From positions 11,577-75,576 of the IMG/VR virus record IMGVR_UViG_3300021060_000024: 64,000 nucleotides of DNA; one strand, given 5' to 3'. Source of the DNA: a virus (Duplodnaviria; Heunggongvirae; Uroviricota; Caudoviricetes). Shown here piece by piece: positions 2,204 through 46,383 of this stretch. The position numbers were made by a program, and so were the translations under genes. Within the stretch, counting starts at the first letter, position 1; each line of letters begins with the position of its first letter. Under the pieces are notes generated by a model, which worked only from the letters and a program-made list of their open reading frames with translations, did no database searches and was not told where the DNA came from.

Positions 2204-2584
2204 GTGGGCGTGACGAGCATCGTCGCGGCGGGGCGCCGACTGGTCGCCACGACGCTGCTCGATCGCGCCGTGCGCCAGGAGCAGGTCACCACCCGCGACG
2301 GCATCGGTGGCTCCTGGTCGGGCTGGCAGGATGTCGGCCCCAAGGTCCCCGTGCGCTTCGGCGCCCTGTCGGAGGCCGACTCGGCCGGACGCTCTGTGCG
2401 CCCGGCCGCGGGTCAGCTCGACGGGGCGCCGGGCGGGATCATGCTGGCCCCCCTGGACAGCAAGTTCGCCGAGAACGACCGGGTGCGCGACGTGCGCACC
2501 GGGCGGATCTGGGTGATCCTCGGCGAACTCACCGCGCCGTCGACCCTGGCCGTGGTGCGCCGGCTCTACATCCGGGAGGCCTGA
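2204..2584 (+). CDS. head-tail adaptor / head closure protein
   Basis: 126 aa. Lies immediately before an HK97 gp10-like gene and a tail terminator-like gene, the typical siphovirus neck module order. Confidence 0.45.
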   Translation: MGVTSIVAAGRRLVATTLLDRAVRQEQVTTRDGIGGSWSGWQDVGPKVPVRFGALSEADSAGRSVRPAAGQLDGAPGGIMLAPLDSKFAENDRVRDVRTGRIWVILGELTAPSTLAVVRRLYIREA

Positions 2585-2958
2585 TGGGCAAGGTGCGCGT
2601 GCGCAACAACCGCCTGCCCGGCATCGCCCGGCGCCTGGAGCCGGAGATGGACCGCGAGGTCGACCGCGCCGGGGACGACCTGGCCAACGACGTCGAGGCT
2701 GCGGTGCGCTTCAACACCGGCGAGACGGCCGCCTCGACCAAGAACTACGAGCCGGGTGAGCTGCACGCCACGGTCGGCGTCGGCATCCGCGGCGGGCCCG
2801 CCTTCTACATCCGTTTCTGGGAGTTCGGCTGGCACAACCCCAACCGCTACGGCATCGGCCCCCAGGCCGGTGACCACACCGTGCAGCGCACCGGGCTGGC
2901 CTTCATGCCCGCCTTCCAGTCCCACATCGCCGACGCAGTCAGGAGGGCAGTCCGATGA
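2584..2958 (+). CDS. HK97 gp10-family neck/tail component
   Basis: 124 aa starting MGKVRVRNNRLPGIARRLE. Start overlaps the upstream stop (ATGA). Size and sequence style match HK97 gp10-like proteins. Confidence 0.5.
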   Translation: MGKVRVRNNRLPGIARRLEPEMDREVDRAGDDLANDVEAAVRFNTGETAASTKNYEPGELHATVGVGIRGGPAFYIRFWEFGWHNPNRYGIGPQAGDHTVQRTGLAFMPAFQSHIADAVRRAVR

Positions 2959-3386
2959 GCCACGGTCACGAGCCGCTGGAGGTCATCGAGCCGTACCTGT
3001 ACTCCACGCTCGCGGGCGACCCCTACCTGGCCTCCAGGGTCAACGACCGGATCATCAACACCCTGGCCGCGGCCGGAGTGGACGACCCCTACATCGTCTT
3101 CGCCCAGGCCCAGATCCGTGACCGCCGCATGGTCAGCGGCGTGCGCCTGTGGGTGGACGCGGTCTACGACGTCAAGGCTGTGATGCAGACGGCGAGCTGG
3201 AAGCCCATGCAGCCGCTCGCGGCTCGCTTCGACGAGCTGTTCGACCGCCAGGGCGAGGTCGTGCAGACCGCTGGCGGCAACCTGGAGATCTGGCGCGAGC
3301 GGCTGATCAGCTACCCCGAGATGGTGCAGGGCGTGCAGTTCCGCCACCTCGGCGCGCAGTACCACGTCCGGGCCTACATCCCCTGA
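2955..3386 (+). CDS. tail terminator / tail completion protein
   Basis: 143 aa. Last gene of the neck module and coupled to the upstream gene. Confidence 0.45.
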   Translation: MSHGHEPLEVIEPYLYSTLAGDPYLASRVNDRIINTLAAAGVDDPYIVFAQAQIRDRRMVSGVRLWVDAVYDVKAVMQTASWKPMQPLAARFDELFDRQGEVVQTAGGNLEIWRERLISYPEMVQGVQFRHLGAQYHVRAYIP

Positions 3387-3398
3387 CGGTCGCTCGGG

Positions 3399-3563
3399 TC
3401 AGATGCGGAACGCCCGGCGGCGTCGGATGCCGCCGAACCACCAGACGTTGCAGTCCCGGCAGCTGTAGGTCCGCCACCAGCGCGTCTCTGAGGTGACGAC
3501 CGCGTGGCAGGACGGACAGCGGTGCGGCTTGTTGCCGTTCCGGCGGACGAGGCGATCCGTCAT
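3399..3563 (-). CDS. zinc-ribbon peptide (54 aa, CxxC...CxxC)
   Basis: Hand-translated: MTDRLVRRNGNKPHRCPSCHAVVTSETRWWRTYSCRDCNVWWFGGIRRRRAFRI. Lies downstream of, and co-oriented with, the HTH gene. Confidence 0.3.
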   Translation of the reverse strand: MTDRLVRRNGNKPHRCPSCHAVVTSETRWWRTYSCRDCNVWWFGGIRRRRAFRI

Positions 3564-3682
3564 GGCCTGCTGCTACTCCGTCTTCTCGTCGAGCTCGTTC
3601 AGTACGAAGTCCTCCGCGGCGCGGCGCGTGCTGCGGTCGCTGGAGTGCGCGTAGGCGTCGACCATGGCCCAGTTGACCTCGC

Positions 3683-4069
3683 TCACGGCTGCACTCGCGG
3701 CCGCACGAGGATGGCCTCGCACAGCACGCAGATGTCCCGGCGGCACTGCGGCTTCGCGCAGGAGCAGCGCTCCCAGACGTGGTCGCACCCCGGGCTCGGG
3801 GCCAGGTCGTAGATGTCGATGTCGAGGTGGTGGGCCAGCAGGATGGCCTCCTCGAAACGCAGGCGCCGCGTGCCGAGCTCGATGGCGCCGTACTGGTCGG
3901 CGGCGAGGTCGCACAGCGCGGCCATCTCCACCCGCGTCATGCCCAGGCCGGTGCGCAGCGTGCGCAGACGCTCGGCCACGCCGCCGTCGAACTGGCTCCA
4001 GCTCTGGAGCTTCTGGCGGTTCGGGTTCGGCGCTCCTCCGGGCATGTAGAGATGATGACGAGTGGACAA
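3683..4069 (-). CDS. XRE-family HTH regulator with Cys-rich C-terminus (repressor-like); likely leaderless start at ATG 4045
   Basis: HTH_XRE signature VAERLRTLRTGLGMTRVEMAALCDLAADQYGAIELGTRRL. C-terminus CDHVWERCSCAKPQCRRDICVLC. TTGACT -35 (4080-4075), 17-bp spacer, CATCAT -10, then the ATG immediately at 4045. Confidence 0.65.
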   Translation of the reverse strand: MSTRHHLYMPGGAPNPNRQKLQSWSQFDGGVAERLRTLRTGLGMTRVEMAALCDLAADQYGAIELGTRRLRFEEAILLAHHLDIDIYDLAPSPGCDHVWERCSCAKPQCRRDICVLCEAILVRPRVQP

Positions 4070-4092
4070 GTCTTAGTCAACCCGGACATGAC

Positions 4093-4127
4093 GAGAGCCC
4101 CGGACCCTGAGGGTCTCCGGGGCTCTC
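4093..4127. terminator. GC-rich hairpin between the NlpC/P60 and HTH genes
   Basis: Perfect 12-bp inverted repeat GAGAGCCCCGGA ... TCCGGGGCTCTC with an 11-nt loop. Confidence 0.4.
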
Positions 4128-4163
4128 GCCAATCAGCCACCCACCACGGAGGCTGTCTGGATG

Positions 4164-4931
4164 CTACAGGACGCGACGGAACACGACCTCATCAGTCCAG
4201 AGCTTGCGCTCGCTGACCTCGCTGCCCGTGCGCGGCGCGTCGATGATCTTGCCGTTGCCGACGTAGATCGCGGCGTGGGCGTAGTCGTCGAAGAGCACCA
4301 GGTCGCCGGGGCGCGCCTCGGCGGCCGGGACCCGCGTGCCGAACGTGCGGAGCTGACCGGTGGTGCGCGGGGTGGCCACGCCCGCCGCCTTGCCGTAGAC
4401 GTACTGGATCAGGCCCGAGCAGTCGAAGCCGCGGCTCGGCGTCTCCTCGCCGTAGGCGTAGTCGATGCCGATCTGCTGGCGCGCCAGGGCGAGCACACCC
4501 TCAGCGCGCGAGGCCGCCGGGGCCGCCTGCTCGCGCTGGACGATGTCGCTGGCCTCCTCGGCCGGGGTTGCCACGGGCTGCGCGCGGCCGGGGATCACCA
4601 GGGTCTGGCCCGGGAAGATCAGCGTGCGTGCGCCCAGGCCGTTGGCCGCCAGCATGGCCGAGGTCGAGACCCCGGCGCGCCGCGCGAGCACGCTCACGGT
4701 GTCGCCCGAGCGCACGGTGACGGTGTCGCCGGTCAGGGCCGGCGAACTGGCCGGGCGCGGCGCGGCGCCCGCGGGCGCCTGGGCCATGGCCGGGGTGGCG
4801 AGCATGACCGGCACCACGGCGAGGGCGCCGGTGACGGCCGCGGCGCGGGCGATGTCGGTCTTGTGCAGGGCCAGGGTGTCGAGGACGGGCGTGGCGTCGG
4901 CCACGCGGTGACGGGCTGCGTTCCTGGTCAT
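4164..4931 (-). CDS. secreted LysM + NlpC/P60 peptidoglycan endopeptidase
   Basis: Signal peptide (AAAVTGALAVVPVMLATPAMAQA). LysM (TVTVRSGDTVSVLARRAGVSTSAMLAANGL). NlpC/P60 catalytic Cys (FDCSGLIQYVYG) plus downstream His. Start at the 29th codon of the track ORF, with AGGA upstream. Confidence 0.7.
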   Translation of the reverse strand: MTRNAARHRVADATPVLDTLALHKTDIARAAAVTGALAVVPVMLATPAMAQAPAGAAPRPASSPALTGDTVTVRSGDTVSVLARRAGVSTSAMLAANGLGARTLIFPGQTLVIPGRAQPVATPAEEASDIVQREQAAPAASRAEGVLALARQQIGIDYAYGEETPSRGFDCSGLIQYVYGKAAGVATPRTTGQLRTFGTRVPAAEARPGDLVLFDDYAHAAIYVGNGKIIDAPRTGSEVSERKLWTDEVVFRRVL

Positions 4932-5048
4932 GGTGGCGTCCTGGGTCGCGGGTGGCGTCCGGGGTGCCGGACCAGTCCATGGTGCGGTGTGGTGCGCGCA
5001 TCGGTGGTAGATCACCGGTCGTGCCCACCAGGATCACCCGCGTGGAGC

Positions 5049-5615
5049 ATGCTGTCCACCATGGCCTTCTCTGCGTCGACCGCGGCGCCCGACGACGTCC
5101 AGACGGCGCAGGGCTCCGGACACCTGCTGCACCACCAGCGGCTGCGTGCCGCAGTGCTGGAGCTGCGCAACGCGGGGCTCGCCCTGGAGGGCGACGTGCC
5201 CGAGCTCGCGCGCGATGCCGTCGCCGCGGCCATCCGGGCCACCGGTGGTGCCACGACCTCCAGCGACGACGCCGGTGACACGATCACGATCGACACCTCC
5301 GCGCTGGCCCGTCGCGGCCTGACGCAGAAGCCGATCACGGCCAACTACACCGTCATCGCAGCCGACCTGATCGACACCGTGCTGCACGTCACCGCCAACT
5401 CGGCCATCACGATCACCCTGCCGACGGGGCTGACCACGGAGATCGCGATCCCGTGGCGCCAGTTCGGCCAGGGTCAGGTGACCTTCGTGGCCGCCAGCGG
5501 TGGCTCGCTGCTGGCGCGCGGCGGGGCGAACAAGGCAGCCGGGCAGTACAGCGGGGGTGTGGTCACGGCGATCAACTCCACCGCCTGGCTGCTGGAGGGG
5601 GACATCACCTCGTGA
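5049..5615 (+). CDS. hypothetical protein (188 aa), translationally coupled to the GH6 gene
   Basis: Only the 3' end of track ORF 4161..5615 looks real (MLSTMAFSAS...GDITS). Its stop overlaps the next GTG (GTGA). Confidence 0.4.
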   Translation: MLSTMAFSASTAAPDDVQTAQGSGHLLHHQRLRAAVLELRNAGLALEGDVPELARDAVAAAIRATGGATTSSDDAGDTITIDTSALARRGLTQKPITANYTVIAADLIDTVLHVTANSAITITLPTGLTTEIAIPWRQFGQGQVTFVAASGGSLLARGGANKAAGQYSGGVVTAINSTAWLLEGDITS

Positions 5616-7822
5616 CTGCTCGCGTCTCGCGCCGCGGCGCCATCGGCGCGCTGCGCCGCCTGCTCACCGGCGTGGCCCCCGGCGCTCCGGGCTACCGCAC
5701 GAACTACGTGCCCAACCCCTCCTTCGAGGTCAGCGACGTGCCGGGCTCCCCGGACGGCCAGCGCTACGGCGGGGGCACGTTCTCGCGCGACACCACGGTC
5801 AAGCAGGTCGGCGCCGCCTCCCTCAAGCTCACCGCGACCAGCACCGTGGACTCCGGCCAGTGGGAGTCGATGGCGCTGGGCGCAGGCACCTACACGGCCT
5901 CGGTCTGGATCAAGACCGACAACGTCACGAACGCCTGCATGGTCCTGCGCGACCCGGGCTTCAACGACATCGGCAGCCAGACGCACCTCAGCGGCACCAA
6001 GGACTGGACGCGCTACTCCAACACCTTCACGCTGAGCGCGCCCACCACGGTGCAGATGCTCGTGGGCCTGGGCTCCTACGGCTCGACCAGCGCGGGCACG
6101 GTCTGGTTCGACGGCATGATGATCGAGGCTGGCTCCAACGTCGGCCCCTACTTCGACGGCGGCTACTCCGCGGCGGGCTCGACCGTGGCGTGGAGCGGCG
6201 GCTCCAACGCCTCCCCCTCCACCGAGAAGCGCCAGCCGGCCACGATCGCCACGCAGGCCGCGCTCAGTGCGAGCTCCACCCTCGGGGTCTCCCTGGCGAG
6301 CAGTGGCTCCGGTGCGAGCAACCCGCCGAGCATGTCCAACCTCTACAAGGCCTCGCAGCAGGTGGACAACTACGTCTCGGCCAACCCGAGCCTGTCGGTG
6401 ATCGCCGACCAGCCCCAGGCGCGGTGGATCAACACCCAGGGCGACGCAGACAACATGGGCGGCCTGGTCAGCGCTGCGGGCACCAAGACGCTGCTGATCT
6501 GCATCTACGCCATCCCCGGGCGCGACAACGGCCAGTACAGCGCTGGCGGCTTCCCTGACCGCGCCTCCTACCTGAACTTCCTGCAGACGGTCAAGACCAA
6601 GATCGGCACCAAGTCGGCCTTCATCTTCTTCGAGCCCGACGCGCTGGGCCTGACCAACGGCCTGAGCGCCTCGCTCAAGGCCGAGCGCATCGAGACGCTG
6701 CGCCAGGGCATCGACATCCTGGCCACGATCCCCAACGCCGAGACCTACATCGACGCCTCCAAGTGGATCTCGCCGTCGGACCAGGCCGGGCTGCAGGCCG
6801 CGGTCGACATCGCCAAGGTCTCGGGCATCGTCATGAACGTCTCGGGCTACGACTCCATGGACTCCTGCTACTCCTACGGCGAGGCGGTCCTGTCCGAGCT
6901 GGCCAACCGCGGCATCACCGGCAAGAAGTACATGATCGACTCCGGGCGCAACGGGGTCGGCCCGCTGACCGACGCCGATCGCCCGCTGGCCAACCCCTGG
7001 CTGGACACCTCCCAGGCCTGGTGCAACCCGCCCAAGCGCCGCCTGGGCCCGGTGCCTCAGGTGCCCTCGGGGCGGCCCAACTGCCGTGGCCTGGTGTGGG
7101 TCAAGAACCCCGGCGAGTCCGACGGCACGTTCCCCTCGACGTCGAACTCGACCTACTACGGCGAGAACGCCCCCAGTGCGGGCGCCTTCTGGCTCGTGCA
7201 GGCCAAGATGCTCGCGGGCACCGAGCCCAGTGGCGGCAGCGGCACCCCGGCCAACACCGGCTTCTCCGCTGTGGTGACGACCTTCGACGGCAACTACGGC
7301 GGCCTGAGCGACCGCTCGGCCGGGGTCAGCCTGGTGGGCGGGCGCGCGCGCCTGACCGCGGACACCTCCTACGCCAACATCTCCACGCCGGGCTCGTACA
7401 CGCTCAAGGAGTCCTCGGTCTACGCCCGGCTGTTCCCGCCGTCGGCCAGCGGGGCGACCCAGGCGGCCACGGTGCAGTTCCTGATCCGCTCCACCGCGGC
7501 CGCGGACGGCACCCGCCTGAACGCCGAGGTCAACACCTTCACCGGCAAGCTCACGATCGCCAGCGACTCGGGCTACTACGACGCCAACGCCGTCCAGCTC
7601 ACCTACGACGCCACGGCGCATGCCTTCCTGCGCTGGCGCGAGGCGGGCGGGACGGTCTACCTGGAGACGAGCTCGGACGGCAACAACTGGACCACGCGTC
7701 GCTCGCTGGCCACGCCCTCGTGGCTGACGGCGACCAACAACCAGCTCATGCAGTTCGTGGCCTACAAGGACGCCGGGGCCGCGGCCTACGCCGAGGTCGA
7801 CAACGTCAACACCACCTCCTGA
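5612..7822 (+). CDS. three-domain glycosidase: CBM4/9-like + GH6-like catalytic + ConA/LamG-like domain
   Basis: GH6 motifs LLICIYAIPGRDNG, IFFEPDALGL and LVWVKNPGESDG. N-terminal jelly-roll region (NPSFEVSD...WFDGMMIEAG). GTG start in a GTGA overlap with the upstream stop. Confidence 0.6.
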   Translation: MTARVSRRGAIGALRRLLTGVAPGAPGYRTNYVPNPSFEVSDVPGSPDGQRYGGGTFSRDTTVKQVGAASLKLTATSTVDSGQWESMALGAGTYTASVWIKTDNVTNACMVLRDPGFNDIGSQTHLSGTKDWTRYSNTFTLSAPTTVQMLVGLGSYGSTSAGTVWFDGMMIEAGSNVGPYFDGGYSAAGSTVAWSGGSNASPSTEKRQPATIATQAALSASSTLGVSLASSGSGASNPPSMSNLYKASQQVDNYVSANPSLSVIADQPQARWINTQGDADNMGGLVSAAGTKTLLICIYAIPGRDNGQYSAGGFPDRASYLNFLQTVKTKIGTKSAFIFFEPDALGLTNGLSASLKAERIETLRQGIDILATIPNAETYIDASKWISPSDQAGLQAAVDIAKVSGIVMNVSGYDSMDSCYSYGEAVLSELANRGITGKKYMIDSGRNGVGPLTDADRPLANPWLDTSQAWCNPPKRRLGPVPQVPSGRPNCRGLVWVKNPGESDGTFPSTSNSTYYGENAPSAGAFWLVQAKMLAGTEPSGGSGTPANTGFSAVVTTFDGNYGGLSDRSAGVSLVGGRARLTADTSYANISTPGSYTLKESSVYARLFPPSASGATQAATVQFLIRSTAAADGTRLNAEVNTFTGKLTIASDSGYYDANAVQLTYDATAHAFLRWREAGGTVYLETSSDGNNWTTRRSLATPSWLTATNNQLMQFVAYKDAGAAAYAEVDNVNTTS

Positions 7823-7900: not shown

Positions 7901-8905
7901 GTGCCCGAGCGCAGTACTACCTCGCAGACCGTCGCCATCGGCACCGAGGCGACCCCGGGCACCGCTGTCGCCGCGACGCGCCGCCTGGGTTCCATCGGCT
8001 TCCAGATGGGCGTCCAGACCGAGACGCAGAACCGCCGTCCCACCGGCCAGAAGTACGACTCCCTGGTCACCCTGGGTCAGGAGTGGACCGAGGCCGACAT
8101 CGAGGGTGCGCCGGTCTACCCGGAGCTGCCCTACATCTTCTCCTCGCTGATCAACGCCGCCACGGTCACGCAGATCATGGACGCGACCACGGCCACCGGC
8201 GCTTTCCGCTGGGTGTTCGAGTCCAACTCCTTCGGCGAGGACGCGCCCAAGACGTTCACCATCGAGCAGGGCTCCTCCTTCCGCGCCCACCGCGTGAGCA
8301 ACGGCATCATCACGGACTTCACCCTGGAGTTCGACCGCGAGGAGCTCTCCATCGAGGGCACCATGCTCGCCAAGGCCATCGAGGACGGCATCACGCTGAC
8401 CCCGGGCGCCACCATGCGCGACCAGGTGCCGGTGCTGCCCAAGGACGTGAGCGTCTTCCTGGACGCCACGGCCGCGGAGCTGGGCACCACCAAGCTCAAC
8501 CGCGCGCTGAGCGGCTCGATCGACATCGAGTCCCGCTACGCGCCGCTGTGGGTGGTGGACGCCTCTCAGCCCTCCTTCGTGACCACGCTGGAGAGCAACG
8601 AGGCCGAGCTCTCCTTCTCCATCCTGCAGATGGCCGACGCCCAGGCCATGGCCAACCTGACCGCCATGCGCGGTGGCCAGACGCGCTTCCTGCGCTTCCA
8701 GGCCCAGGGCCCGACGATCTACTCCGGCACCACGCCGATCCGCCACTCGTTCGTCATCGAGATGGCTGGCCAGGTGCAGGAGGTCGAGCAGTTCGACGAC
8801 GAGGACGGCGTCTACGCCATCGGCTGGACCTTCGGCGTGGTCCACGACCCGACGTGGAACAAGGCCTACCGCGTGGAGGTCGTCACCAACCACGGTCAGC
8901 TCTGA
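7901..8905 (+). CDS. major tail protein
   Basis: 334 aa. GAGAGGAG RBS then GTG. Followed by a strong hairpin, then the chaperone and tape measure genes. Confidence 0.5.
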   Translation: MPERSTTSQTVAIGTEATPGTAVAATRRLGSIGFQMGVQTETQNRRPTGQKYDSLVTLGQEWTEADIEGAPVYPELPYIFSSLINAATVTQIMDATTATGAFRWVFESNSFGEDAPKTFTIEQGSSFRAHRVSNGIITDFTLEFDREELSIEGTMLAKAIEDGITLTPGATMRDQVPVLPKDVSVFLDATAAELGTTKLNRALSGSIDIESRYAPLWVVDASQPSFVTTLESNEAELSFSILQMADAQAMANLTAMRGGQTRFLRFQAQGPTIYSGTTPIRHSFVIEMAGQVQEVEQFDDEDGVYAIGWTFGVVHDPTWNKAYRVEVVTNHGQL

Positions 8906-8951: not shown

Positions 8952-9042
8952 CTCTGTCTCGTAGCACAGCGTCACGGGCCGTGGCACACCGTGAGGCTAC
9001 GGTGTGGGCACCACGTCGGATCTCACCAAGGAGCCCCCACCC

Positions 9043-9399
9043 GTGAAGCTCTCCCAGGCCATCGCCAAGGCCCGCGACATCACCGTCCCCTTCGAGGGTG
9101 ACGACCTGCACGTCACCTACCGGCCGGCCTCGTTCACCATCCGCGAGCTCGACGCGCTGACCGAGGCGCAGAAGAAGGGCGACGGCAAGCCGACCCGTCA
9201 GCTCCTGGAGACCGTCAAGCGGGTCATCCTGGAGTGGGACCTCACCGATGAGGACGAGAAGGTCATCGCGCTCGACGCGAAGCTGGACGACGAGAAGGAC
9301 CCGCTGCGCGACGTCCCGTCGGTCGTGTTCACCGAGATCATGAAGAAGATCAACGAGGACCAGCAGCCGGGGGGGGACAAGACCTCCAGCGCGCGCTAG
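9043..9399 (+). CDS. tail assembly chaperone (G-like)
   Basis: AAGGAG then GTG at 9043. Acidic ~118-aa protein directly upstream of the tape measure gene. 3' end carries an 8-G run. Confidence 0.55.
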   Translation: MKLSQAIAKARDITVPFEGDDLHVTYRPASFTIRELDALTEAQKKGDGKPTRQLLETVKRVILEWDLTDEDEKVIALDAKLDDEKDPLRDVPSVVFTEIMKKINEDQQPGGDKTSSAR

Positions 9400-9593
9400 C
9401 CACTGGAGGTCAGGTCGGCGCGGTCCCGGAGTGGTACGAGACGCTCCAGGCCGCACGGTACATGAAGGTGCCCCCGTGGGAGTTGGCCGATCAGCCACTC
9501 TTCTGGCAGCGCGCGGCCCTTGCCGCCATGAAGGCTGAGAACGCCGCTCGCAACCGGAAGGACAAGCCCAGTGCCCACGGTCGCCGAGCTTGA
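9043..9593 (+). CDS. tail assembly chaperone GT product via -1 frameshift at G-run 9369-9376
   Basis: The -1 frame is open from the G-run to TGA at 9591-9593. It encodes ...WYETLQAARYMKVPPWELADQPLFWQRAALAAMKAENAARNRKDK. Confidence 0.45.
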
Positions 9594-12500
9594 GATCGAC
9601 CTCGACGCTCGTGACAACGCCACCGCTCAGCTCCTTGCCGTCAACCGGCTGCTGGAGCAGTTCGACGGTCGCGACGCGGACGCCAACCTCGGAGTCGACG
9701 GGGTGGGCCAGGTGCTCGCCGACATCCAGGCCGCCAACCAGGCCGCGCAGAGCTTCGCTGACCAGGATGTCCGCAAGGAGATCGAGGTCGAGAACGAGCG
9801 GGCCCTGCGCGCCCTGGAGCGCGTGCGCGCCGAGGCGGCGACGCTGGCCGACAACAAGATGCGGCTGGAGGTCGAGGTCGCCAACGCCAAGGCGCTGGCT
9901 GACCTGGCCGCCGTCGAGGCCGCCGCCGCGGCCCTGGCCGACCAGGTCAGCATGGACGTCGACATCGACGACGCCGCGGCCATGGCCAAGCTGGCCGGGC
10001 TGCAGCGCGCGGTCAACGCCATCGACGGCAACATCCGCGTGGACGCCGACACCTCCGCAGCGCGCGCGCAGATCGACGCCGTCATCGACTCGATCACGGA
10101 CCGCAAGGCCACCGTGAAGATGCTGGCCGACATCGCCGACGTCGAGCAGAAGGTGGCGCAGGTCGACGCGCTGACCTCGCGGCTGCGCGACCAGGTGGTG
10201 AGGTTCGACGGCGACGACGCGGGCGTGCGCGCCACGGTGGCTGCGGTCGAGGCCATGGTGCGTGACCTCAAGGCCAACGTGATCTTCGAGGGCGACACCA
10301 CCAACGTCGAGCAGGCCGTGGCGCTGGCCAACGGGCTGCTGCAGCAGTACGCCACCCAGCAGGCCGAGGCCAAGCTGGACGCCGACGCCGACGCCGCACG
10401 CGGGGCCATCGCCATGGCCATCGCTGACCTGCAGGCCTTCGACGGCCGAGTGGCCACTGCGCAGATCCGCGCTGACGTGGACGCTGCGGGCATCGCCCAG
10501 GCGCAGGCCCTGCTGGACTCCATCCCCAAGGAGGTCCGCAGCCGCATCACTGCCGACATCGGGGACCTGGTGGCTGGCGTCGCGGCGAGCAAGGCGGCGC
10601 TGGCCAGCCTGCCCGAAGAGATCAACATCCGCGTCGACACGCGCAACCTGTCCGACCTGGCCGACAAGGCGCGCTACGCCGGTGGCCAGATCGGCGTGCT
10701 CGGCATCGCCGTGTCCGGCCTGGGGGCGGCGCTGATCCCGCTGGGTGCGGTGGCTGTCGGCTCCGTCGGCGCGCTGGGCGCCGCCTTCACCGTCGCGGGC
10801 GGCGCGGCCACGGTCTTCGGCTTCGCGGCCGTCTCGGCCCTGGGTCCGGTGGCCGACGCCGTCGAGCAGATCCGTCAGGGCGAGCAGCAGTACAAGGAGG
10901 CCGTCACCGACCCGGCCAAGGAGGCCGCCCTCCTCAAGATCCAGATGGCCTACAACGCGCTCAGCACCGAGCAGCGCGCCGCGGTCGAGGGCGTGCTGGC
11001 CTACCAGAACGCCTGGCAGGGCCTGGTCACCAGCATCCAGCCGCAGATCTTCCAGGCCACGGCCACGGTGCTGCAGACGCTCACCAGCCTGTTCCAGCAG
11101 ATGAGTCCTGCGATCACCGGCGTGGCGAACGAGGTCGTCTCCCTGGCGAACAGCGCCGCGGCGGCTCTGGGCAACCCGGTCTGGCAGACCTTCATCAACA
11201 ACATGAACAACCTGGCCGGCCCCGTCTTCGGTGCGCTCGTGCGCGGCCTGGGCAACGTGGTCACCGGGATCATCGGCCTGGTCAACGCCTTCACCCCGAT
11301 GTCGGTCGGCTTCGTGCAGGGCTTCGAGCAGATGACGGCCGCCTTCGCGACCTGGTCGGCCGGGCTGGCCAACAACACCGGCTTCCAGAACTTCATCAAC
11401 TACATCCAGCAGAACATGCCGCGGGTGCGCGAGTTCATCGCTGACGCCGTGCAGGCCATCGTCGACTTCGTCCAGGCGACCGCACCGCTGGGCTCGACGG
11501 TGCTGGACGCGGTCAACCGGGTGCTGGAGGCGTTCAGTCGCCTGCAGGAGGTCAACCCTCAGCTCGCCGCCGTCGTGGCCTCGGTCGCGCTGCTGACCCC
11601 GGCAGTGCTGGGCGTCGCGGGCGCCGTGGCGCCGGTCATCTCCCTGTTCATCACCATGGCGGGCGCGGCCGGCGAGCTCGGCGGCGCGCTCGGCATCGCC
11701 GCGGGCGGCTTCACCGGCACGACCACCTCGGCCTCGGGCTTCGCCGGGGTCATGACCACGGTCGGCACCGCGGTGCGTACCGCGGGCGGGCTGCTGCAGT
11801 CGACGCTGGGCATCCTGACCCTGTTCGGTGGCGGCTTCATCACGGCCATCGCCGAGAGCCAGCGCTTCCGCGACACGATCGTGGACGGCTTCCAGTCGAT
11901 CGGCACGGCCTTCTCCGGCCTGGGCACGGCCTTCGCGGGCCTGTTCAGCGCGCTGGGCGAGATGGTCGGCGCCTTCAACGACGTGTCCGAGGCCGTGGTG
12001 ACCCTGGGCGGCTCCTGGGGTCAGTTCTTCGGGCCCATGGTCACCATCGCTGCGGAGTCGGCCTCGGCCGTGATCGAGATCCTCACCTCGATCGTGGAGG
12101 CCTTCTCCAACGTCTTCTCGGGCCTGGCCGCTGCGGCCAACCGGGACTGGCAGGGCGTGTGGGACGCGCTCAACGACGACGCGCCGCGCCAGGCCATCGA
12201 CCGCGCGCTGCAGAACGTCAAGAACGTGCTCAAGGCGCCCAGCCAGGACTACAGCGAGTACGGCAAGCGCTCGATGGACGAGGTCGGCCAGGGCTTCGAC
12301 GCGGGCGCAGGCCTGGTGGGCGGGCAGATGCCCAACCACGCCTCGATGCTCGCGCAGGCCTTCGGCTCCAACCTCACCGGCTTCGACACCGCGGGCCAGC
12401 AGGCCATGACCGCCGTCGGCACCGGCGCGGCCGCGGGCGTGCCCGGAGCCATCGCACCCTTCACCGGCCTGGGCACCCAGGCCAGCGGTGCTCTGACGGG

Positions 12501-15306
12501 CCTGGCGGCCATCGGCCAGCCCGCGGGTGCGCAGGCCATGGCCGGGGTCGGGGCGGGCGCGAGCCAGTCCGTGCCCCAGGCGCTGGCCCCCTTCGAGCAG
12601 CTCCAGCCCGGCATCCAGCAGGCCGTGGCCAACGTGGCCACCTCCACGCTGGCCGCGGGCACGGACGCCATGGGCAACTTCTCGGCCGGGGCGATCCAGA
12701 ACTTCACGGCCGCCATGGCCCCCTTCGAGCAGCTCCAGCCCGGCATCACCGCGGCCACGCTGAACGCGGCGCTGGCGGCGACTCCCGGTGGCCAGCGCGC
12801 CATGGCGGGCTTCGGCGAGGGCGCGCAGGCGAACATCGCCAGCGCCCTGACCCCCTTCCAGCAGCTCAACCCCCAGCTCGCCGCGGTCGTCATGGCCACG
12901 GTGGACTCCATCGCGCCCATGGGCGGGGCGACGATGGTCAGCTTCGGCGCCGAGGCGCAGGCCAACCTGGCCGCCGCGCTGGCGCCCTACGAGGCCATCG
13001 CCCCGGGGATCACCGCGGCGCTGACCAACGCGATCGTGGCCAACACTGAGCAGGGCCGCCTGGGCATGGAGGCCTACGGCCAGGGCGTGGCCTCGGGCGC
13101 GCCCGCGGTCACCGGTGCCGTGCAGCAGGTCACCACGCAGGCTCAGGCCGCGCTCGACGCGGGCAACGCCATGTACAACCCCTCGGGGGCCAAGGGCGCC
13201 GCAGAGTACAACGCGGGGCTGGCCTCGGGCGCGGCGGGTGCGGGGGCTGCAGCGGCGACCGTCACCACCGCGGTGCAGGGCGCCCTGGACTCCGGCTCGG
13301 CCATGTACAACCCCTCGGGCGCCAAGGGCGCCGCGGAGTACAATGCGGGCCTGACCACCGGTGGCGCCGGTGCCCACGCTGCGGCCATCTCGGTGACCGA
13401 CCAGGCGCGCATGGGCTTCATCGCTGGCGGCACCCTGACCGCTGAGGGCCTGGCCTCGGGCACGAGCTACGGCACCGGCATGACCGGCGCCAGTGGCGCA
13501 GTGAGTGCGGCGGCGGCGACGCTGCCCGCGGCGGCGCGCACCTCCTTCGGTGGCGGCGGCGACTTCACCCCTGAGGGTGCGCAGATCCCGACCAGCATGG
13601 CTGCGGGCATCAGCGCGGGCGTGGCCTCGGTGCAGGGCGCCATGATGCTGATCTCCAACGCCATCAGCGCGCAGATCGTGAACGCCCAGCTCCAGGGCAC
13701 CGACATGGGCACGCGCTTCTCGAACTCGCTGACCACGTCGCTGACGGGCGCGAGCACCGCAGTGCAGGGCTCGATGATGCTCATCACCAACGCCATGAGC
13801 GCCGGGGCGATCCAGGCCAGCACCGCTGGCACTGCGGTGGGGCAGAACTTCACCCAGGGCCTGACCACGAGCCTGACTGGCGCTGCCACCGCGGTGCAGG
13901 GCTCGATGATGATGATCACCAACGCGATGTCGGCTGGGGCGGTCCAGGCCTCGGTCGCGGGCACCGCGGTGGGTACCAACTTCACCCAGGGCCTGACCAC
14001 GAGCCTGACCGGCGCGGCCACCGCGGTGCAGGGCTCGATGATGATGGTGACCAACGCCATGAGTGCCGCGGCGGTTCCCGCCTCGGTCGCGGGCACGGCC
14101 ATCGGCACCAACTTCACCACCGGGCTCACCACGGGCCTGACGGCGGCCACGACCGCCACGACCACCGCCATGGCCTCGATCACCGCGGCCATGCAGACCG
14201 GCCTGGCTGGGGCGCAGGCGGCCGTGACGGCCGCCATGGCGGCGATGACGGCGGCCTTCACCACCGGCTTCACCGGCATGACCACCGCGGCCACCACGGC
14301 CATGGCGGCCATCGGCACGGCGATCACCGCGGGGCTGGCCACGGCGCAGGCGGCCGTGGCAGCGGCAGTCGCTGCCATGACGGCGGTCTTCACCACCGGC
14401 TTCGCGGCCATGCAGGCGGCGGTCACCGCGGCCATCACGGCCATCGGTGCCGCGATCACCGCAGGCATGGCGGCGGCCACCGCGGCTGTGACGGCGGCCG
14501 TGACGGCCATGCAGACCGCCTTCACCGCGGGCTTCACCGCGATCACCGCCGCGGTGACGCAGTCGATCACGGCGATCGTCCAGGCGATCACCCAGGGCAT
14601 GACCACCGCCCTGCAGGCCGTGACCACCAGCGTGCAGGCGATGGTGCAGGCCTTCACCAGCGGCTTCGCCCAGGCGCAGGCCGCGGTGCAGTCGGCCGTG
14701 GCGGGCATGGTGGCCGCGATCCAGTCGGGCATGAACCAGGCGCTCGCGGCGGTCAACAGCTTCGTGAACGCGGCCGTGGCGGCTCTGAACGGCATGGGCG
14801 CGCGCTTCCGGGCCGCGGGCGCGGCCGCAGGTGCAGACCTGGCCGCGGGCCTGCAGTCCCAGGTCGGTGCAGTCCAGGCCGCCTCGGCGGCGCTGGCGGC
14901 CGCGGCGGCCGCGCCGATGCCGGGCTCCCCGGCCAAGGTCGGGCCGCTGTCGGGCAACGGCTGGACGCGCATCCGTGGTGAGCACTTCGGTGAGGATCTG
15001 ACCGCGGGCCTGCTCTCCCAGGTGCGCGACGTGCGCGGGGCCTCGGGCGCGCTGGCCAGTGCGGCCAGCCGCGCGCTGGGCTCGGACATCGCTGGCGGCC
15101 TGTCGCTGTCGGGCTCGGGCTCGCTGGGCACGGCCAAGACGCTCTCGGGCTCGCTGTCGGGCAGCCGTGGTGGGATCACGATCAACGTGAGCGCCGACGC
15201 GGTCAAGGTGACCACGACCGGCGACGCCGCCAAGGCTGACTTCCGTGACGCGGGCAACGAGCTGGCGCACATCCTGAACGCCGCGCTCCGGCGCCGGACC
15301 TCGTGA
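9571..15306 (+). CDS. tape measure protein (1911 aa)
   Basis: Coiled-coil N-terminal region, transmembrane segments (GIAVSGLGAALIPLGAVAVGSVGALGAAF) and long Ala/Thr/Gly tandem repeats. Position after G/GT. Confidence 0.8.
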   Translation: MPTVAELEIDLDARDNATAQLLAVNRLLEQFDGRDADANLGVDGVGQVLADIQAANQAAQSFADQDVRKEIEVENERALRALERVRAEAATLADNKMRLEVEVANAKALADLAAVEAAAAALADQVSMDVDIDDAAAMAKLAGLQRAVNAIDGNIRVDADTSAARAQIDAVIDSITDRKATVKMLADIADVEQKVAQVDALTSRLRDQVVRFDGDDAGVRATVAAVEAMVRDLKANVIFEGDTTNVEQAVALANGLLQQYATQQAEAKLDADADAARGAIAMAIADLQAFDGRVATAQIRADVDAAGIAQAQALLDSIPKEVRSRITADIGDLVAGVAASKAALASLPEEINIRVDTRNLSDLADKARYAGGQIGVLGIAVSGLGAALIPLGAVAVGSVGALGAAFTVAGGAATVFGFAAVSALGPVADAVEQIRQGEQQYKEAVTDPAKEAALLKIQMAYNALSTEQRAAVEGVLAYQNAWQGLVTSIQPQIFQATATVLQTLTSLFQQMSPAITGVANEVVSLANSAAAALGNPVWQTFINNMNNLAGPVFGALVRGLGNVVTGIIGLVNAFTPMSVGFVQGFEQMTAAFATWSAGLANNTGFQNFINYIQQNMPRVREFIADAVQAIVDFVQATAPLGSTVLDAVNRVLEAFSRLQEVNPQLAAVVASVALLTPAVLGVAGAVAPVISLFITMAGAAGELGGALGIAAGGFTGTTTSASGFAGVMTTVGTAVRTAGGLLQSTLGILTLFGGGFITAIAESQRFRDTIVDGFQSIGTAFSGLGTAFAGLFSALGEMVGAFNDVSEAVVTLGGSWGQFFGPMVTIAAESASAVIEILTSIVEAFSNVFSGLAAAANRDWQGVWDALNDDAPRQAIDRALQNVKNVLKAPSQDYSEYGKRSMDEVGQGFDAGAGLVGGQMPNHASMLAQAFGSNLTGFDTAGQQAMTAVGTGAAAGVPGAIAPFTGLGTQASGALTGLAAIGQPAGAQAMAGVGAGASQSVPQALAPFEQLQPGIQQAVANVATSTLAAGTDAMGNFSAGAIQNFTAAMAPFEQLQPGITAATLNAALAATPGGQRAMAGFGEGAQANIASALTPFQQLNPQLAAVVMATVDSIAPMGGATMVSFGAEAQANLAAALAPYEAIAPGITAALTNAIVANTEQGRLGMEAYGQGVASGAPAVTGAVQQVTTQAQAALDAGNAMYNPSGAKGAAEYNAGLASGAAGAGAAAATVTTAVQGALDSGSAMYNPSGAKGAAEYNAGLTTGGAGAHAAAISVTDQARMGFIAGGTLTAEGLASGTSYGTGMTGASGAVSAAAATLPAAARTSFGGGGDFTPEGAQIPTSMAAGISAGVASVQGAMMLISNAISAQIVNAQLQGTDMGTRFSNSLTTSLTGASTAVQGSMMLITNAMSAGAIQASTAGTAVGQNFTQGLTTSLTGAATAVQGSMMMITNAMSAGAVQASVAGTAVGTNFTQGLTTSLTGAATAVQGSMMMVTNAMSAAAVPASVAGTAIGTNFTTGLTTGLTAATTATTTAMASITAAMQTGLAGAQAAVTAAMAAMTAAFTTGFTGMTTAATTAMAAIGTAITAGLATAQAAVAAAVAAMTAVFTTGFAAMQAAVTAAITAIGAAITAGMAAATAAVTAAVTAMQTAFTAGFTAITAAVTQSITAIVQAITQGMTTALQAVTTSVQAMVQAFTSGFAQAQAAVQSAVAGMVAAIQSGMNQALAAVNSFVNAAVAALNGMGARFRAAGAAAGADLAAGLQSQVGAVQAASAALAAAAAAPMPGSPAKVGPLSGNGWTRIRGEHFGEDLTAGLLSQVRDVRGASGALASAASRALGSDIAGGLSLSGSGSLGTAKTLSGSLSGSRGGITINVSADAVKVTTTGDAAKADFRDAGNELAHILNAALRRRTS
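13720..14115 (+). repeat. three tandem ~132-nt coding repeats inside the tape measure gene
   Basis: Repeated peptide LTTSLTGA(A/S)TAVQGSMM(L/M)(I/V)TNAMSAGA(V/I)QAS(V/T)AGTAVG(T/Q)NFTQG. A looser AAMTAAFTTGF... array follows to about 14700. Confidence 0.5.
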
Positions 15307-18300: not shown

Positions 18301-18349
18301 CGTGGGCGCGCGCACCATCACGGCCGACTACGTGGAGGTGGAGCGGTGA
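15314..18349 (+). CDS. minor tail protein (Dit-like, 1011 aa) with Asp-box-like motifs and two FN3-like domains
   Basis: First gene after the tape measure. SxDxG motifs (SVDGGSVF, SSDGTMRV). FN3-like segments (PQAPVLLDPPSG...YTWSVAARS and LTITEP...AYRAWVRVTS). Confidence 0.5.
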   Translation: MPKVASAPHHDSLSGSPEKRYDIAPDGGEHLLVVAPYRATFLRSVDGGSVFNPFSSFDLGQDTAVPSFVIGDDGTAFVSYCQWNRDPQVIKLRRGRQTSTGWQWSEITLAPGGRVGVDTDLIVFRQGAGYVVFVYWTAMEGGYVARVDVSSDGTMRVTSLRHGTKGGRVAGLIQMGSLEFAHSGDGKTPSSAPHLFCTTAASNNPLYVHRARFESAGVWTWEDPVVVETNVSVNQTAMTTVWDGERLCIAYVLNNSSTIRFAEWSGSGAVTFRNPPAFPSGRGVVPGITISHDPATDDIYLLAYGSTQGDIMACRLNRASATWDSAWTTAVTRPASTADGKVNAVRHPSRDSVQFAWATPGGAGWDVYASQLTALVRTPQAPVLLDPPSGATRDLAAGYTFRHRYQPVGPGDKQQGYYWRRQYTSGGSAITEWWNAASQSWSSTAVLNTGETSAVSFAPGKWSNGSTYTWSVAARSLTGSVSPYSAPRTVVATTAPALTITEPLGIVFGTTTPAVAWTVGGPDPQRDYRVRIVPDAANVDANDPGPAIWDSGVIASALARRVVVGTDLTPNVAYRAWVRVTSTAGIASAWVSSPFLLNLNPPNGPLVEVVDEVAYGTEVPRVRLDLLARSNLMGEDQALGQAGWLTDNASVAPVGANTTSQTENGVALTSAAGGAMSMLSALGTPPAAPPGRPQPLGPLFFPAVPGQTYTAMAHGRSPDNNRALRVSIHWFSDDTAADGALPGSASYITTAAGEQFNIGAAAYNQARLSARAPATARMGRVVVEVLGVAAAGEVVYLSRFAVQPGASTAWQPGGYTGGQVLVLERSDDDGEAWRQVGERIKPDVYQRAVTRDRSMPMGRRVLYRASTVVDVYGASGVSTLRSVISPVAAINLAGPTWIMRDLTNESDDGEVLAFVTDWQEEDEEEVAIHKPTGRFYPVVDSEGEHAGSGSMTFYVPAALVAKTTRLLTSGNALLMQSPLGRVLMARFSRREYEPEVVGARTITADYVEVER

Positions 18350-21215: not shown

Positions 21216-21392
21216 GTGAGCGAGCTCGACGCCACCTACACCCACCCCACCGGCGAGCACATCGACTGGAGCGCCTGGCCCGAGCCTGACGCCGCCGACG
21301 GTGACGGCTCGGAGTTCGGCGAGCGCCTGGGCGATGGCCCCGGCGCGGTGACCGACACCACCGTGGCCGCCACCCAGCGTCTGGAGTCCTGA
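21216..21392 (+). CDS. small acidic protein (58 aa)
   Basis: GTG start. Its stop overlaps the LysA ATG. Confidence 0.3.
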   Translation: MSELDATYTHPTGEHIDWSAWPEPDAADGDGSEFGERLGDGPGAVTDTTVAATQRLES

Positions 21393-22414
21393 TGGCCCTG
21401 AACCTCGATCAGGTCGTGCAGCGCGCGATCCCCTCCCCGAACTACTCCAGCCGCGGCGGCAAGGACGTGCGCCTGCTGCTGCTGCACACCGCCGAGGGCA
21501 GCCGGACCAACGCCTCCCTGGGCTCCTGGTTCGGGCGCAAGTCCACCAAGGCCTCCAGCCACGTCGGGATCGACGCCGACAGCGTGGTGCGCTTCGTGCC
21601 CGAGGCCTACTCGGCCTGGACCGCGCGCTCGGCCAACCCCGTGGCCTCCCAGGCCGAGCTCTGCGCCTGGGCCAAGTGGAAGGGCGCCGAGTGGGGCGCC
21701 CAGGACTCGATGCTGGAGAACGCCGCCCGCTGGCTGGCGGCCGCGGCGCGCTACCACGACATCCCCCTGGTGCGCCTGCGCGACGCCCAAACCAAGTCCG
21801 GGCGCGGCGTGGCCATGCACGTCGACATCACGCGCGGCTGGCGCGAGGGCTCCCACGCCGACTGCGGCCAGTGGTTCGCCGACCACCTCATGGACTCCGT
21901 GATCGAGCGCGCTCGGGTACTGGCTGGCGGCGCGGGCAGCCCCGTGGTCGTGCCCGCGGTGCCGGTCCCGATGCCCGCAGGCCGCGGCCCCTACGGGCTG
22001 CCGGTGCTGCGCTGCGACGGGGCCGAGTCCGGCTGGGCCTGGCTGATGCAGGAGGCGCTCATCCGCGCCGGGCACGCGCTCAGCCGCGACGGCAGGCCCG
22101 GAGCCCAGACCGACCGCGAGCTGCGCAAGTACCAGGCTGCGCGCGGGCTGGCCGTGGACGCGGTCTGCGGCGGCTGGACGTGGGCCTCCTTCATCAAGGA
22201 CGCGGGCGACCCGCTGCGCCAGGGCATGGCCAAGGGCCACCCCGGCGTCGAGGTGCTGCAGAACTTCCTCGGCATGCGCGGCGCCGACCTGGACCGCGAC
22301 TTCGGCGGCGGCACCGCGGCGCGCCTGCGGGCGGTGCAGTCCTGGGGCGACCTGAGCCCCGACGCGGTGGTCGGCTCCGACACCCGCACCCTGCTCGCGA
22401 CGCGGGCCTACTGA
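21392..22414 (+). CDS. endolysin: N-acetylmuramoyl-L-alanine amidase + two PG_binding_1 domains
   Basis: Amidase_2 motifs VRLLLLHTAEGS and SHADCGQW. Two peptidoglycan-binding repeats (DRELRKYQAARGLAVDAVCGGWTW and GVEVLQNFLGMRGADLDRDFGGGTAARLRAVQ). Confidence 0.8.
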   Translation: MALNLDQVVQRAIPSPNYSSRGGKDVRLLLLHTAEGSRTNASLGSWFGRKSTKASSHVGIDADSVVRFVPEAYSAWTARSANPVASQAELCAWAKWKGAEWGAQDSMLENAARWLAAAARYHDIPLVRLRDAQTKSGRGVAMHVDITRGWREGSHADCGQWFADHLMDSVIERARVLAGGAGSPVVVPAVPVPMPAGRGPYGLPVLRCDGAESGWAWLMQEALIRAGHALSRDGRPGAQTDRELRKYQAARGLAVDAVCGGWTWASFIKDAGDPLRQGMAKGHPGVEVLQNFLGMRGADLDRDFGGGTAARLRAVQSWGDLSPDAVVGSDTRTLLATRAY

Positions 22415-22424
22415 AAGGACGACC

Positions 22425-22670
22425 ATGAGCACCGACGACCCCAAGACCATCCCGACCCCGGTCAGCCCCAAGGTCTACTCCAGCACCGGCGCGGGTGCGG
22501 CGCTGCTGGCCCTGGGCTTCATCCTGCGCTACTACGGCCTGGACGTGCCCGACGCCGTCATCGGGGCCGTGGCCGTGATCGGCACGTTCGCCGCGGGCTA
22601 CATCACCCCCGACCGCCTGCGCGAGATCGGGGCCGTCTTCCAGCGCGGCCGCGGCGAGCACCGCGCGTGA
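22425..22670 (+). CDS. holin (2 TM, 81 aa)
   Basis: Helices GAGAALLALGFILRYYG and AVIGAVAVIGTFAAGYI. Lies immediately after the endolysin. Confidence 0.6.
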   Translation: MSTDDPKTIPTPVSPKVYSSTGAGAALLALGFILRYYGLDVPDAVIGAVAVIGTFAAGYITPDRLREIGAVFQRGRGEHRA

Positions 22671-46306: not shown

Positions 46307-46383
46307 GCGCACTCCTTGGTGGTGGTCGCCTCCGGCGAACCCGGCGGCGTGAGTGGAACTCTCGCGCACTGGACAAGGGCTTG

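Follow-up and report, generated by a model that had tools for sequence, protein, structure and literature searches.

A predicted endo-type GH6 glycanase carried as cargo between tail genes of an uncultured actinophage

We analysed a 64,000-nt stretch of DNA (positions 11,577 to 75,576 of IMG/VR record IMGVR_UViG_3300021060_000024; hereafter the window), which is 71% GC, phage-like over its full length and comes from an uncultured siphovirus-type actinophage. Between its tail-completion and putative major tail genes lies a gene for a 736-amino-acid (aa) protein that joins a catalytic domain of glycoside hydrolase family 6 (GH6) to two domains of sugar-binding type, a gene to which a sequence-only reading of this DNA had drawn attention. 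Very probably, this is an intact GH6 glycanase of endo type, carried as cargo in a slot that sister phages leave empty or fill with a different glycanase. For its role we prefer, with confidence and doubt in about equal measure, a full model in which the protein is a virion-tethered endo-β-1,4-glycanase depolymerase acting on host surface glycan.

Gene structure and GH6 catalytic domain

The 736-aa gene is part of the late structural module and shares its strand with the tail-completion and major tail genes on either side. The GTG start at 5612-5614 and the TGA stop at 5613-5615 of an upstream 188-aa open reading frame (ORF) overlap in a GTGA, as the sequence-only reading had described, and a GGAGG-rich stretch lies 10-13 nt 5' of the GTG. 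Codon-position GC backs both frames (GC at third codon positions, GC3, 0.93 and 0.97), and gene calls on the European Nucleotide Archive copy of the contig (75,580 bp) independently yield both genes. An identical 736-aa protein is recorded once, on one JGI contig of 75.6 kb. From the N-terminus, the architecture comprises a CBM4_9-like domain (CBM, carbohydrate-binding module), a Ser/Ala-rich linker, the GH6 catalytic domain and a ConA-like lectin domain (Table 1).

The Pfam profile Glyco_hydro_6 (PF01341) matched aa 247-512 (E=4.6e-38; 132 bits, cutoff 27) and was covered from position 5 to 302 of 305, a profile match that is far from chance. All three GH6 signatures that had been named from the letters were located, namely PGRD at aa 302-305 (within IYAIPGRD), FEPDALG at 340-346 and VWVKNPGESDG at 495-505. 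Sequence matches in the PDB were led by Mycobacterium tuberculosis Cel6 (1UP0/1UOZ, E=7e-36) and included a compost GH6 endoglucanase (6FAO) and Thermobifida fusca Cel6A (1TML, 8e-24). Structure prediction was one of the checks that had been suggested for the GH6 assignment. An AlphaFold2 (AF2) model built on 20 homologues was confident for aa 240-535 and 547-736, with a predicted local distance difference test (pLDDT) of at least 83 over most of aa 240-535. Foldseek superposed this region on the endoglucanases M. tuberculosis Cel6 and T. fusca Cel6A with template modelling (TM) scores of 0.84-0.86 and root-mean-square deviations (rmsd) of 2.4-2.9 Å (1UP0: TM 0.84, rmsd 2.5 Å, E=4e-23; 1TML: TM 0.85); model and superposition together give the distorted seven-stranded α/β barrel of GH6.

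Target-normalised TM scores were 0.82-0.86 for bacterial endoglucanases, 0.68 for Humicola insolens Cel6B and 0.51-0.67 for cellobiohydrolases. Because of this gap between endoglucanases and cellobiohydrolases, the modelled domain is classed as an endo-type, open-cleft GH6, a call based on TM values, best sequence matches and the ~290-aa domain size. Across an alignment of 20 sequences, Y299, R304, D305, E341, P342 and D343 do not vary, and D504 reaches at least 90% conservation. In a phage clade of 13 sequences, the invariant residues include D343 and D504, with D305 conserved at 90% or more. The catalytic Asp residues, whose absence would have spoken against the assignment, are therefore present and conserved (D305, D343, D504), and K498, E502 and D504 of VWVKNPGESDG are all found in the 736-aa protein, K498 too being a conserved position. 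If the active-site roles are those we assume from Trichoderma reesei Cel6A and T. fusca Cel6A, D343 would be the catalytic acid and D504 the proposed base or network residue, and the predicted activity would be inverting hydrolysis of β-1,4-glycosidic bonds.

Insertion at a cargo slot between tail genes

For a comparison of the slot, we used 23 related loci found via the putative major tail protein, which is conserved among them at 40-63% identity. In ten of these, the tail-completion gene is directly followed by the major tail gene (gap of 24-96 nt), in agreement with the earlier wording that the glycosidase gene is "inserted". In eight others the slot encodes a protein of 350-520 aa, in which a Sec signal and a Pro/Thr linker accompany a catalytic region resembling clan GH-A, one locus has 827 nt of unassigned content there, and the GH6 island is present in the window only. 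Since the slot is empty in ten loci and filled with a GH26-like glycanase in eight, this junction of tail genes is a hot spot specific to the lineage, with 3400..7822 (4.5 kb) as its cargo in this phage. The position first given for the gene, between tail terminator and major tail genes, stands in outline, although the antisense genes of the island (minus-strand coding of 3400..5015) had been overlooked, as had the tail type of the 188-aa partner and the different glycanase in the slot of sister phages.

Pfam gave no match on the slot cargo proteins of the sister phages. They are called GH26-like because a profile built from this family matches Cellvibrio japonicus Man26C in the PDB (E=8.6e-4) and a paralogue in the window has a sub-threshold Pfam match. 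The flanking genes (2584..2958, 2955..3386 and 7901..8905) were assigned from weak matches plus synteny. Homologues of 2955..3386 occur in more than 20 related loci, directly 5' of the major tail gene or of slot cargo. For the protein of 7901..8905 there was no direct family match, no tblastn match and no PDB sequence match, so that synteny and position are what identify it as the putative major tail protein. Four loci have an HNH endonuclease next to the cargo or slot, which suggests homing-type mobility.

Two further observations concern this slot and its cargo. In locus L171, an HNH gene with several CxxC pairs (9259-10017, -) separates the GH26-like cargo from the major tail gene, and such a gene is also found in L179, L185, L186 and L199. 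The window itself encodes a second putative glycanase (23141..24505, +), a distant paralogue of the sister-phage cargo (22-27% identity). It combines a signal-anchor N-terminus and a linker rich in Ala, Ser and Pro with a GH26-like region of clan GH-A, where Pfam GH26 scored below threshold (E=0.0046) and the motifs HEMNG and SEW were recognised by eye.

Sugar-binding domains and the 188-aa partner

The N-terminal domain had been described as CBM4/9-like. Matched directly, it scores only weakly and below the Pfam cutoff for CBM_4_9 (PF02018; E=0.068, 14 bits, cutoff 25.9), and its pLDDT is 50-63, but homologues of aa 22-215 with 33-47% identity score CBM_4_9 at 5e-40, 4e-21 and 1.5e-17; these strong matches make the assignment probable, by transitive homology only. 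One such homologue also weakly matches SPP1_Dit, and the domain recurs in gp44 of Arthrobacter phages Ottawa/Kharcho, annotated as a minor tail protein.

For the C-terminal domain, in which Pfam found no match, the proposed ConA/LamG-like character is borne out by fold. The pLDDT of aa 547-736 is mostly 77-93, with two short dips to ~62, and Foldseek returned probability 1.0 and E ~1e-6 to 2UWC, 6IBU, 5SV8 and Emp46p (2A6W), the matches being GH16/xyloglucanase, Crh5, legume-lectin and Emp46p jelly rolls. The domain also matches phrog_14065 (1.3e-37), and a relative (P0007) carries Laminin_G_3. The GH16 catalytic motif ExDxxE was not seen in it by eye. In the viral structure library BFVD, it matches actinophage minor tail proteins, and it is shared with minor tail proteins of Streptomyces phages and with Ponzi gp58 and Kromp gp22 of cultured phages, both of which stand at the end of the tail block.

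The last ~100 residues of the 188-aa protein form a conserved knob (pLDDT 83-90), whose PHROG matches fall in the very last, C-terminal part of minor tail proteins and virion structural proteins. By tblastn, the 188-aa protein matches minor tail proteins of Gordonia phages. A 53%-identical knob is encoded by L177, whose baseplate is organised as in the window phage; there it lies in the baseplate block, between the Dit-like gene and the DUF5047 hub gene. Foldseek matched the knob solely to virion proteins, namely the Pa223 capsid spike (1.3e-5), the KP1 baseplate cup and the N-terminus of CBA120 TSP4. The N-terminal region of TSP4 is a docking platform for other tailspikes, an analogy that suggests an adaptor role for the 188-aa protein. 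All three non-catalytic parts, the CBM4_9-like domain, the ConA-like domain and the knob, recur in annotated actinophage minor tail proteins.

A motif near the N-terminus of the 188-aa protein, ARDAVAA.IRA...DDA.D.I.I, is shared with the Phage_tail_C protein that precedes GH6 in L008. A strictly conserved pair of partner and GH6 genes was considered and ruled out, as only this 30-residue stretch is shared with L008 (E=2e-6), and the 188-aa protein showed no similarity to the upstream genes of L001 and L007. The recurring arrangement is a tail-fibre-type gene followed by GH6.

Relatives in phages and viromes

The earlier description of such an enzyme as uncommon agrees with our counts: among 50,697 GenBank phage records, GH6 matches were limited to two records of Streptomyces phage Gilgamesh and a single contig of a faecal phage, and GH6 was found in 156 of 2.9 million IMG/VR contigs. 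The GH6 fold was absent from the top BFVD matches. Scans of genome and viral collections with single-protein patterns gave no close relatives, while alignment-based scans were productive. In a distinct actinophage clade, GH6 and ConA-like domains form one unit, with ~13 representatives of 439-1427 aa that are 45-55% identical over aa ~240-734. Many clade relatives reach 1000-1400 aa and carry PKD, fn3, LamG or PL14 modules, and no signal peptide was found in 22 of them. Where context was available, they often have an overlapping stop and start with the preceding gene. The GH6 relative follows the tape measure, Dit and Sipho_Gp37 genes in L005 and L009, and stands directly after a Phage_tail_C fibre-type gene in L001 and L008. 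Gilgamesh gp72 ("glycoside hydrolase") lies two genes after a minor tail protein.

Separate from this clade is a family of stand-alone GH6 proteins of ~282 aa (L095, 9968-10816; L121, 9956-10810; ~75 further IMG/VR loci, L095-L169), which score 1e-49 to 1e-51 in Pfam, have no signal peptide and occur on viral contigs of 30-43% GC. A conserved ~270-aa gene lies directly upstream of them, and in L095 a peptide deformylase gene is found one gene further upstream.

Cellular relatives and a candidate substrate

Cellular GH6 relatives were collected with two short peptide patterns, and the figures given here refer to the best 80 relatives listed. These are 33-36% identical to the phage GH6 at best, and 48 of the 80 have a homologue of glxA, of cslA or, in 43 cases, of both as a neighbour, in Streptomyces, Kitasatospora and Actinoplanes. 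Others are mycobacterial CelA1-type enzymes or belong to bacteria of the Candidate Phyla Radiation (CPR). CslZ, the GH6 enzyme of the Streptomyces cslA-glxA-cslZ system for a cellulose-like glycan, hydrolyses cellulose, chitin and S. coelicolor peptidoglycan in vitro, the peptidoglycan activity being abolished by D120A (PMC9040799). The 736-aa protein has neither the lipoprotein signal nor the cslA/glxA linkage of a CslZ. Descent from CslZ was considered and dropped, because the phage clade is not nested within CslZ in a neighbour-joining tree.

The terminase is closest to that of Streptomyces phage Kromp (51%) and domain matches are mostly to Streptomyces phages, which suggests a Streptomyces-like host. 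On this basis, the most likely substrate would be the cellulose-like, CslA/GlxA-type glycan of such hosts, with the glycan strands of peptidoglycan or another wall polysaccharide as possible alternatives.

Two side observations were made on the cellular loci. In CPR genomes of Candidatus Taylorbacteria and Wildermuthbacteria (L015 and L070, ~10001-13600), GH6 lies ~2 kb from a CslA-like family-2 glycosyltransferase that is 29-30% identical to Streptomyces CslA, which hints at a possible cellulose-like glycan system in CPR. In the cslZ locus of Streptomyces varsoviensis (L011, 9824-16441), an FtsW/RodA-family gene is placed between cslZ and glxA-cslA.

Role of the enzyme during infection

In the model we prefer, the 736-aa enzyme would fold in the cytoplasm late in infection and be tethered by its 188-aa partner to the virion, most likely at the tail. 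At contact with a new host, the two sugar-binding domains would anchor it on a β-1,4-linked surface glycan, which the GH6 domain would cut by an inverting mechanism with D343 as the acid, opening a route to the wall or receptor at adsorption or penetration. Enzyme copies left unassembled and freed at lysis could also clear matrix. Inspection by eye revealed neither a Sec/Tat signal nor a lipobox in the 736-aa protein, with charged residues within the would-be h-region of SRRGAIGALRRLL. Tat export via SRRGAIGAL was examined as a candidate and ruled out by this charged h-region and by the absence of signals in the relatives.

Several findings weigh against this model. No recognisable anchor domain was found in the 736-aa protein, the first 82 residues of its AF2 model are of low confidence, and neither a paralogue of the protein nor a shared N-terminal anchor was detected among the tail proteins of the window. 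The gene pair stands 5' of the major tail gene, outside the baseplate/fibre block, and the glycanases that occupy the same slot in sister phages carry a Sec signal and would thus be soluble secreted enzymes rather than virion parts. Moreover, "minor tail protein" labels of GenBank actinophages are largely positional, and in the neighbour-joining tree the phage clade forms a branch of its own outside CslZ, so that CslZ is nearest by score only.

The first three of these matters, that is, the missing anchor, the position outside the baseplate block and the eight signal-peptide cargoes, favour the main rival, a soluble late enzyme that would accumulate in the cytoplasm, be freed at lysis and degrade matrix or surface glycan, so that progeny diffuse without being trapped on debris. 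It would be the functional equivalent of the secreted GH26-like enzyme of the sister phages, with the 188-aa protein as an independent tail component or co-factor, and two CBM-type domains are also typical of free glycanases. The GH6 protein, however, lacks the export signal of the GH26-like cargo, its translation is coupled to that of a partner whose fold is of virion type, and it has clade relatives within tail-fibre blocks, often as very large multidomain proteins. We therefore regard the soluble enzyme as a serious but less likely explanation than tethering to the virion. The suggestion of the sequence-only reading, a virion-associated or free depolymerase, would fit the evidence in either form.

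The β-1,4 linkages to be cut might instead be those of peptidoglycan glycan strands, with GH6 as a virion-associated entry lysin or as an additional lytic enzyme that complements the amidase endolysin. CslZ, among the nearest cellular GH6 types listed, is a precedent for activity on S. coelicolor peptidoglycan (PMC9040799). The tape measure protein of the window has no Pfam lysozyme, SLT or peptidase domain, its aa 580-864 giving a weak PHROG "endolysin" match (phrog_971, E=2.3e-5), while the tape measure of L177 has SLT and LysM; NlpC/P60 genes also lie near GH6 in both the window and L001. We nevertheless consider this target unlikely: characterised GH6 enzymes are overwhelmingly β-1,4-glucanases, the flanking domains are CBM4_9-like and lectin-like rather than LysM, SH3 or PG_binding (a Pfam scan found no peptidoglycan-binding domain in the 736-aa protein), and 13 kb separate the gene from those for endolysin and holin. 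The neighbouring NlpC/P60 protein is encoded on the opposite strand with a signal peptide of its own and is therefore not co-assembled with GH6. A role of GH6 as the endolysin proper was ruled out, because a canonical Amidase_2 + PG_binding_1 endolysin and a holin sit elsewhere.

Least probable by a wide margin is an auxiliary metabolic gene (AMG), a host-derived cellulase that would boost the use of plant cellulose by the infected cell: virome papers do list viral GH6 among carbon-degradation AMGs (PMC8725595) and the protein combines CBM and GH6, but without a Sec/Tat signal extracellular cellulose would be out of reach before lysis, the gene is coupled to a tail-type protein inside a late structural operon, its flanking domains are of phage-tail type rather than the CBM2/CBM3 of cellulolytic systems, and the phage clade is distinct from cellular GH6 (at most 36% identity among the matches listed).

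Beyond the virion-tethered depolymerase itself, a more far-reaching combination can be drawn up, which we judge improbable as a whole. Here, the slot would be a dedicated exchange site for interchangeable glycan-degrading enzymes, possibly serviced by the HNH endonucleases, where the window phage would keep an adaptor-tethered GH6 and some other phages a secreted GH26-like enzyme; the GH6 would be aimed at the CslA/GlxA glycan of hyphal tips; and, given its position next to neck genes, it might sit on the collar or along the tail instead of on the baseplate. If all this were true, the cellulose-like glycan would be a general physical anti-phage barrier in filamentous actinomycetes, breached by a recruited CslZ-like activity.

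Gene map of the window

The coordinates of the island, its flanks and the remaining tail genes are compiled in Table 1. Codon-position GC places coding of 3400..5015 on the minus strand, with four ORFs in the same 4.5-kb island as the GH6 pair. The largest encodes the NlpC/P60 peptidase, whose N-terminus shows by eye a Sec-type signal (...AVVPVMLATPAMA/QAP). A scan of the island for promoters and terminators found no consensus sigma-70 site in the intergenic region 4932..5048. The cluster at 3400-4931 (-) may resemble a moron-type or early-expressed unit inside the late operon. A recurrent GH6 + NlpC/P60 module was also considered and is unsupported: the NlpC/P60 domains of the window and L001 are 45% identical, but in the window the gene is antisense and its product secreted, and domains of this kind are widespread in phages.

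Table 1 Features of the window around the GH6 gene
Feature	Position (strand)	Size	Basis or remark
Neck1/tail-completion-like gene	2584..2958		phrog_5 (weak match)
Tail completion/terminator-like gene (left flank)	2955..3386 (+)	143 aa	Tail_completion_gp17 E=7.7e-4, under Pfam cutoff
Cys-rich (CxxC...CxxC) Zn-ribbon-like ORF	3400..3563 (-)	54 aa	Translation, codon-position GC, independent gene call
Small ORF	3573..3722 (-)	49 aa (37 aa in independent call)	
XRE-type helix-turn-helix regulator	3683..4069 (-)	120-128 aa	Pfam HTH_3 E=4.8e-7, PHROG transcriptional repressor families, GC3
Secreted LysM + NlpC/P60 cell-wall peptidase	4164..4931 (-)	255 aa from ATG at 4931 (ORF reaches 5015)	Pfam NLPC_P60 5.6e-21, LysM 7.5e-12; 255 aa also in independent call
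Divergent intergenic region	4932..5048	117 nt	Between NlpC/P60 gene and 188-aa gene
Tail-type partner/putative adaptor	5049..5615 (+)	188 aa	Fibre-like N-terminal motif and ~100-aa C-terminal knob
CBM4_9-like/GH6/ConA-like glycanase gene	5612..7822 (+)	736 aa	GTG start
N-terminal CBM4_9-like jelly-roll domain	5684..6226 (+)	aa ~25-205	
GH6 catalytic domain, endoglucanase-type	6329..7216 (+)	aa ~240-535	
C-terminal ConA-like lectin/glucanase-fold domain	7250..7819 (+)	aa ~547-736	
Putative major tail protein (right flank)	7901..8905 (+)	334 aa	Position before chaperone and tape measure
Chaperone-sized gene	9004..9399		Before tape measure
Tape measure	9571..15306	1911 aa	phrog_305 E=4.7e-27
DUF5047/Phage-tail_3 hub, tail-collar fibre, endolysin, holin, WhiB			In this order, 3' of the 1011-aa gene
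Amidase_2 + PG_binding_1 endolysin and holin	21392..22670		

Directly 3' of the tape measure gene, a 1011-aa protein with fn3/Ig-like repeats is encoded (15314-18349, +), which is 26% identical to a 1031-aa protein at the equivalent position in L177 and probably represents a distal tail protein that is enlarged and carries carbohydrate-binding decorations. A WhiB-like regulator gene (22667-22975, +) follows immediately after the holin gene. The non-structural arm includes genes for an SPFH/Band 7 protein (43309-44172, -), a DUF6197 protein (45500-46369, -) and a C5 cytosine methylase (54081-55310, -). No integrase match was found among the scanned ORFs of the window, with ~11.6 kb of the contig lying outside it, and there are no tRNAs within the window. 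A nucleotide search of the region against GenBank phages gave no match.

Implications and comparison with known systems

Phage depolymerases and GH6 enzymes are both well known, and GH6 genes were already present, unremarked, in a few cultured phages and 156 IMG/VR contigs. What sets this case apart is the conjunction of catalytic family, putative separate adaptor, location and a slot for exchangeable glycanases. In the open-access literature, we found no paper that treats GH6 as a phage infection enzyme. Viral GH6 genes are at present filed as carbon-cycling AMGs, whereas the architecture and synteny described here favour a role in infection, which would alter how these genes are counted in soil and sediment viromes. 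The findings also point to cellulose-like surface glycans of actinomycetes as a possible phage barrier or receptor, and such an enzyme might be of use for dispersing Streptomyces pellets or cellulose-containing mycobacterial biofilms. A hot spot with alternative glycanases is, in addition, a compact case of modular cargo exchange within a structural operon.

With the actinomycete endoglucanases M. tuberculosis Cel6/CelA1 (1UP0/1UOZ) and T. fusca Cel6A (1TML/2BOD), the window GH6 shares the fold, the size of ~290 aa, the catalytic set (Y, D, EPD, K..E.D) and the predicted open-cleft endo type. It differs from them in its sequence (26-31% identity), in the absence of a signal peptide and in being encoded in a phage structural operon, and it is flanked by phage-type CBM4_9-like and ConA-like domains where the actinomycete enzymes have CBM2. 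In secreted GH6 enzymes, the Cys of RDC and the Cys after PGESDGT form disulfides; both are replaced in the window protein (RDN, DGTF).

Streptomyces CslZ is likewise a single endo-type GH6 domain, with 33-36% identity to the window GH6 among the matches listed, and the two plausibly have a common substrate, an apical β-glucan and possibly peptidoglycan. CslZ, unlike the window protein, is a ~340-aa lipoprotein without CBMs (PMC9040799). Their roles would be opposite, CslZ serving to deposit the glycan and the phage GH6 to breach it.

Among phage proteins, the uncultured clade (P0002-P0012, P0022-P0027) resembles the window protein in its two-domain unit of GH6 and ConA-like domains in actinophage tail regions, whereas Gilgamesh gp72 is 30% identical in the GH6 part only. 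Neither gp72 nor any member of the clade occupies the slot between terminator and major tail genes in which the window gene lies.

Tail-associated depolymerases are represented by the K1F endosialidase, the P22 endorhamnosidase and the capsule depolymerases of Klebsiella phages. Like these, the window enzyme is late, encoded with tail genes and modular with carbohydrate-binding parts. In branched systems such as that of CBA120 TSP4, tail depolymerases sometimes attach via a separate adaptor, and the N-terminal region of TSP4 is among the fold matches of the 188-aa partner. Unlike them, the window enzyme is a GH6 α/β barrel rather than a trimeric β-helix, its attachment to the virion is putative, and its gene stands before the major tail gene, where tail depolymerase genes follow the tape measure.

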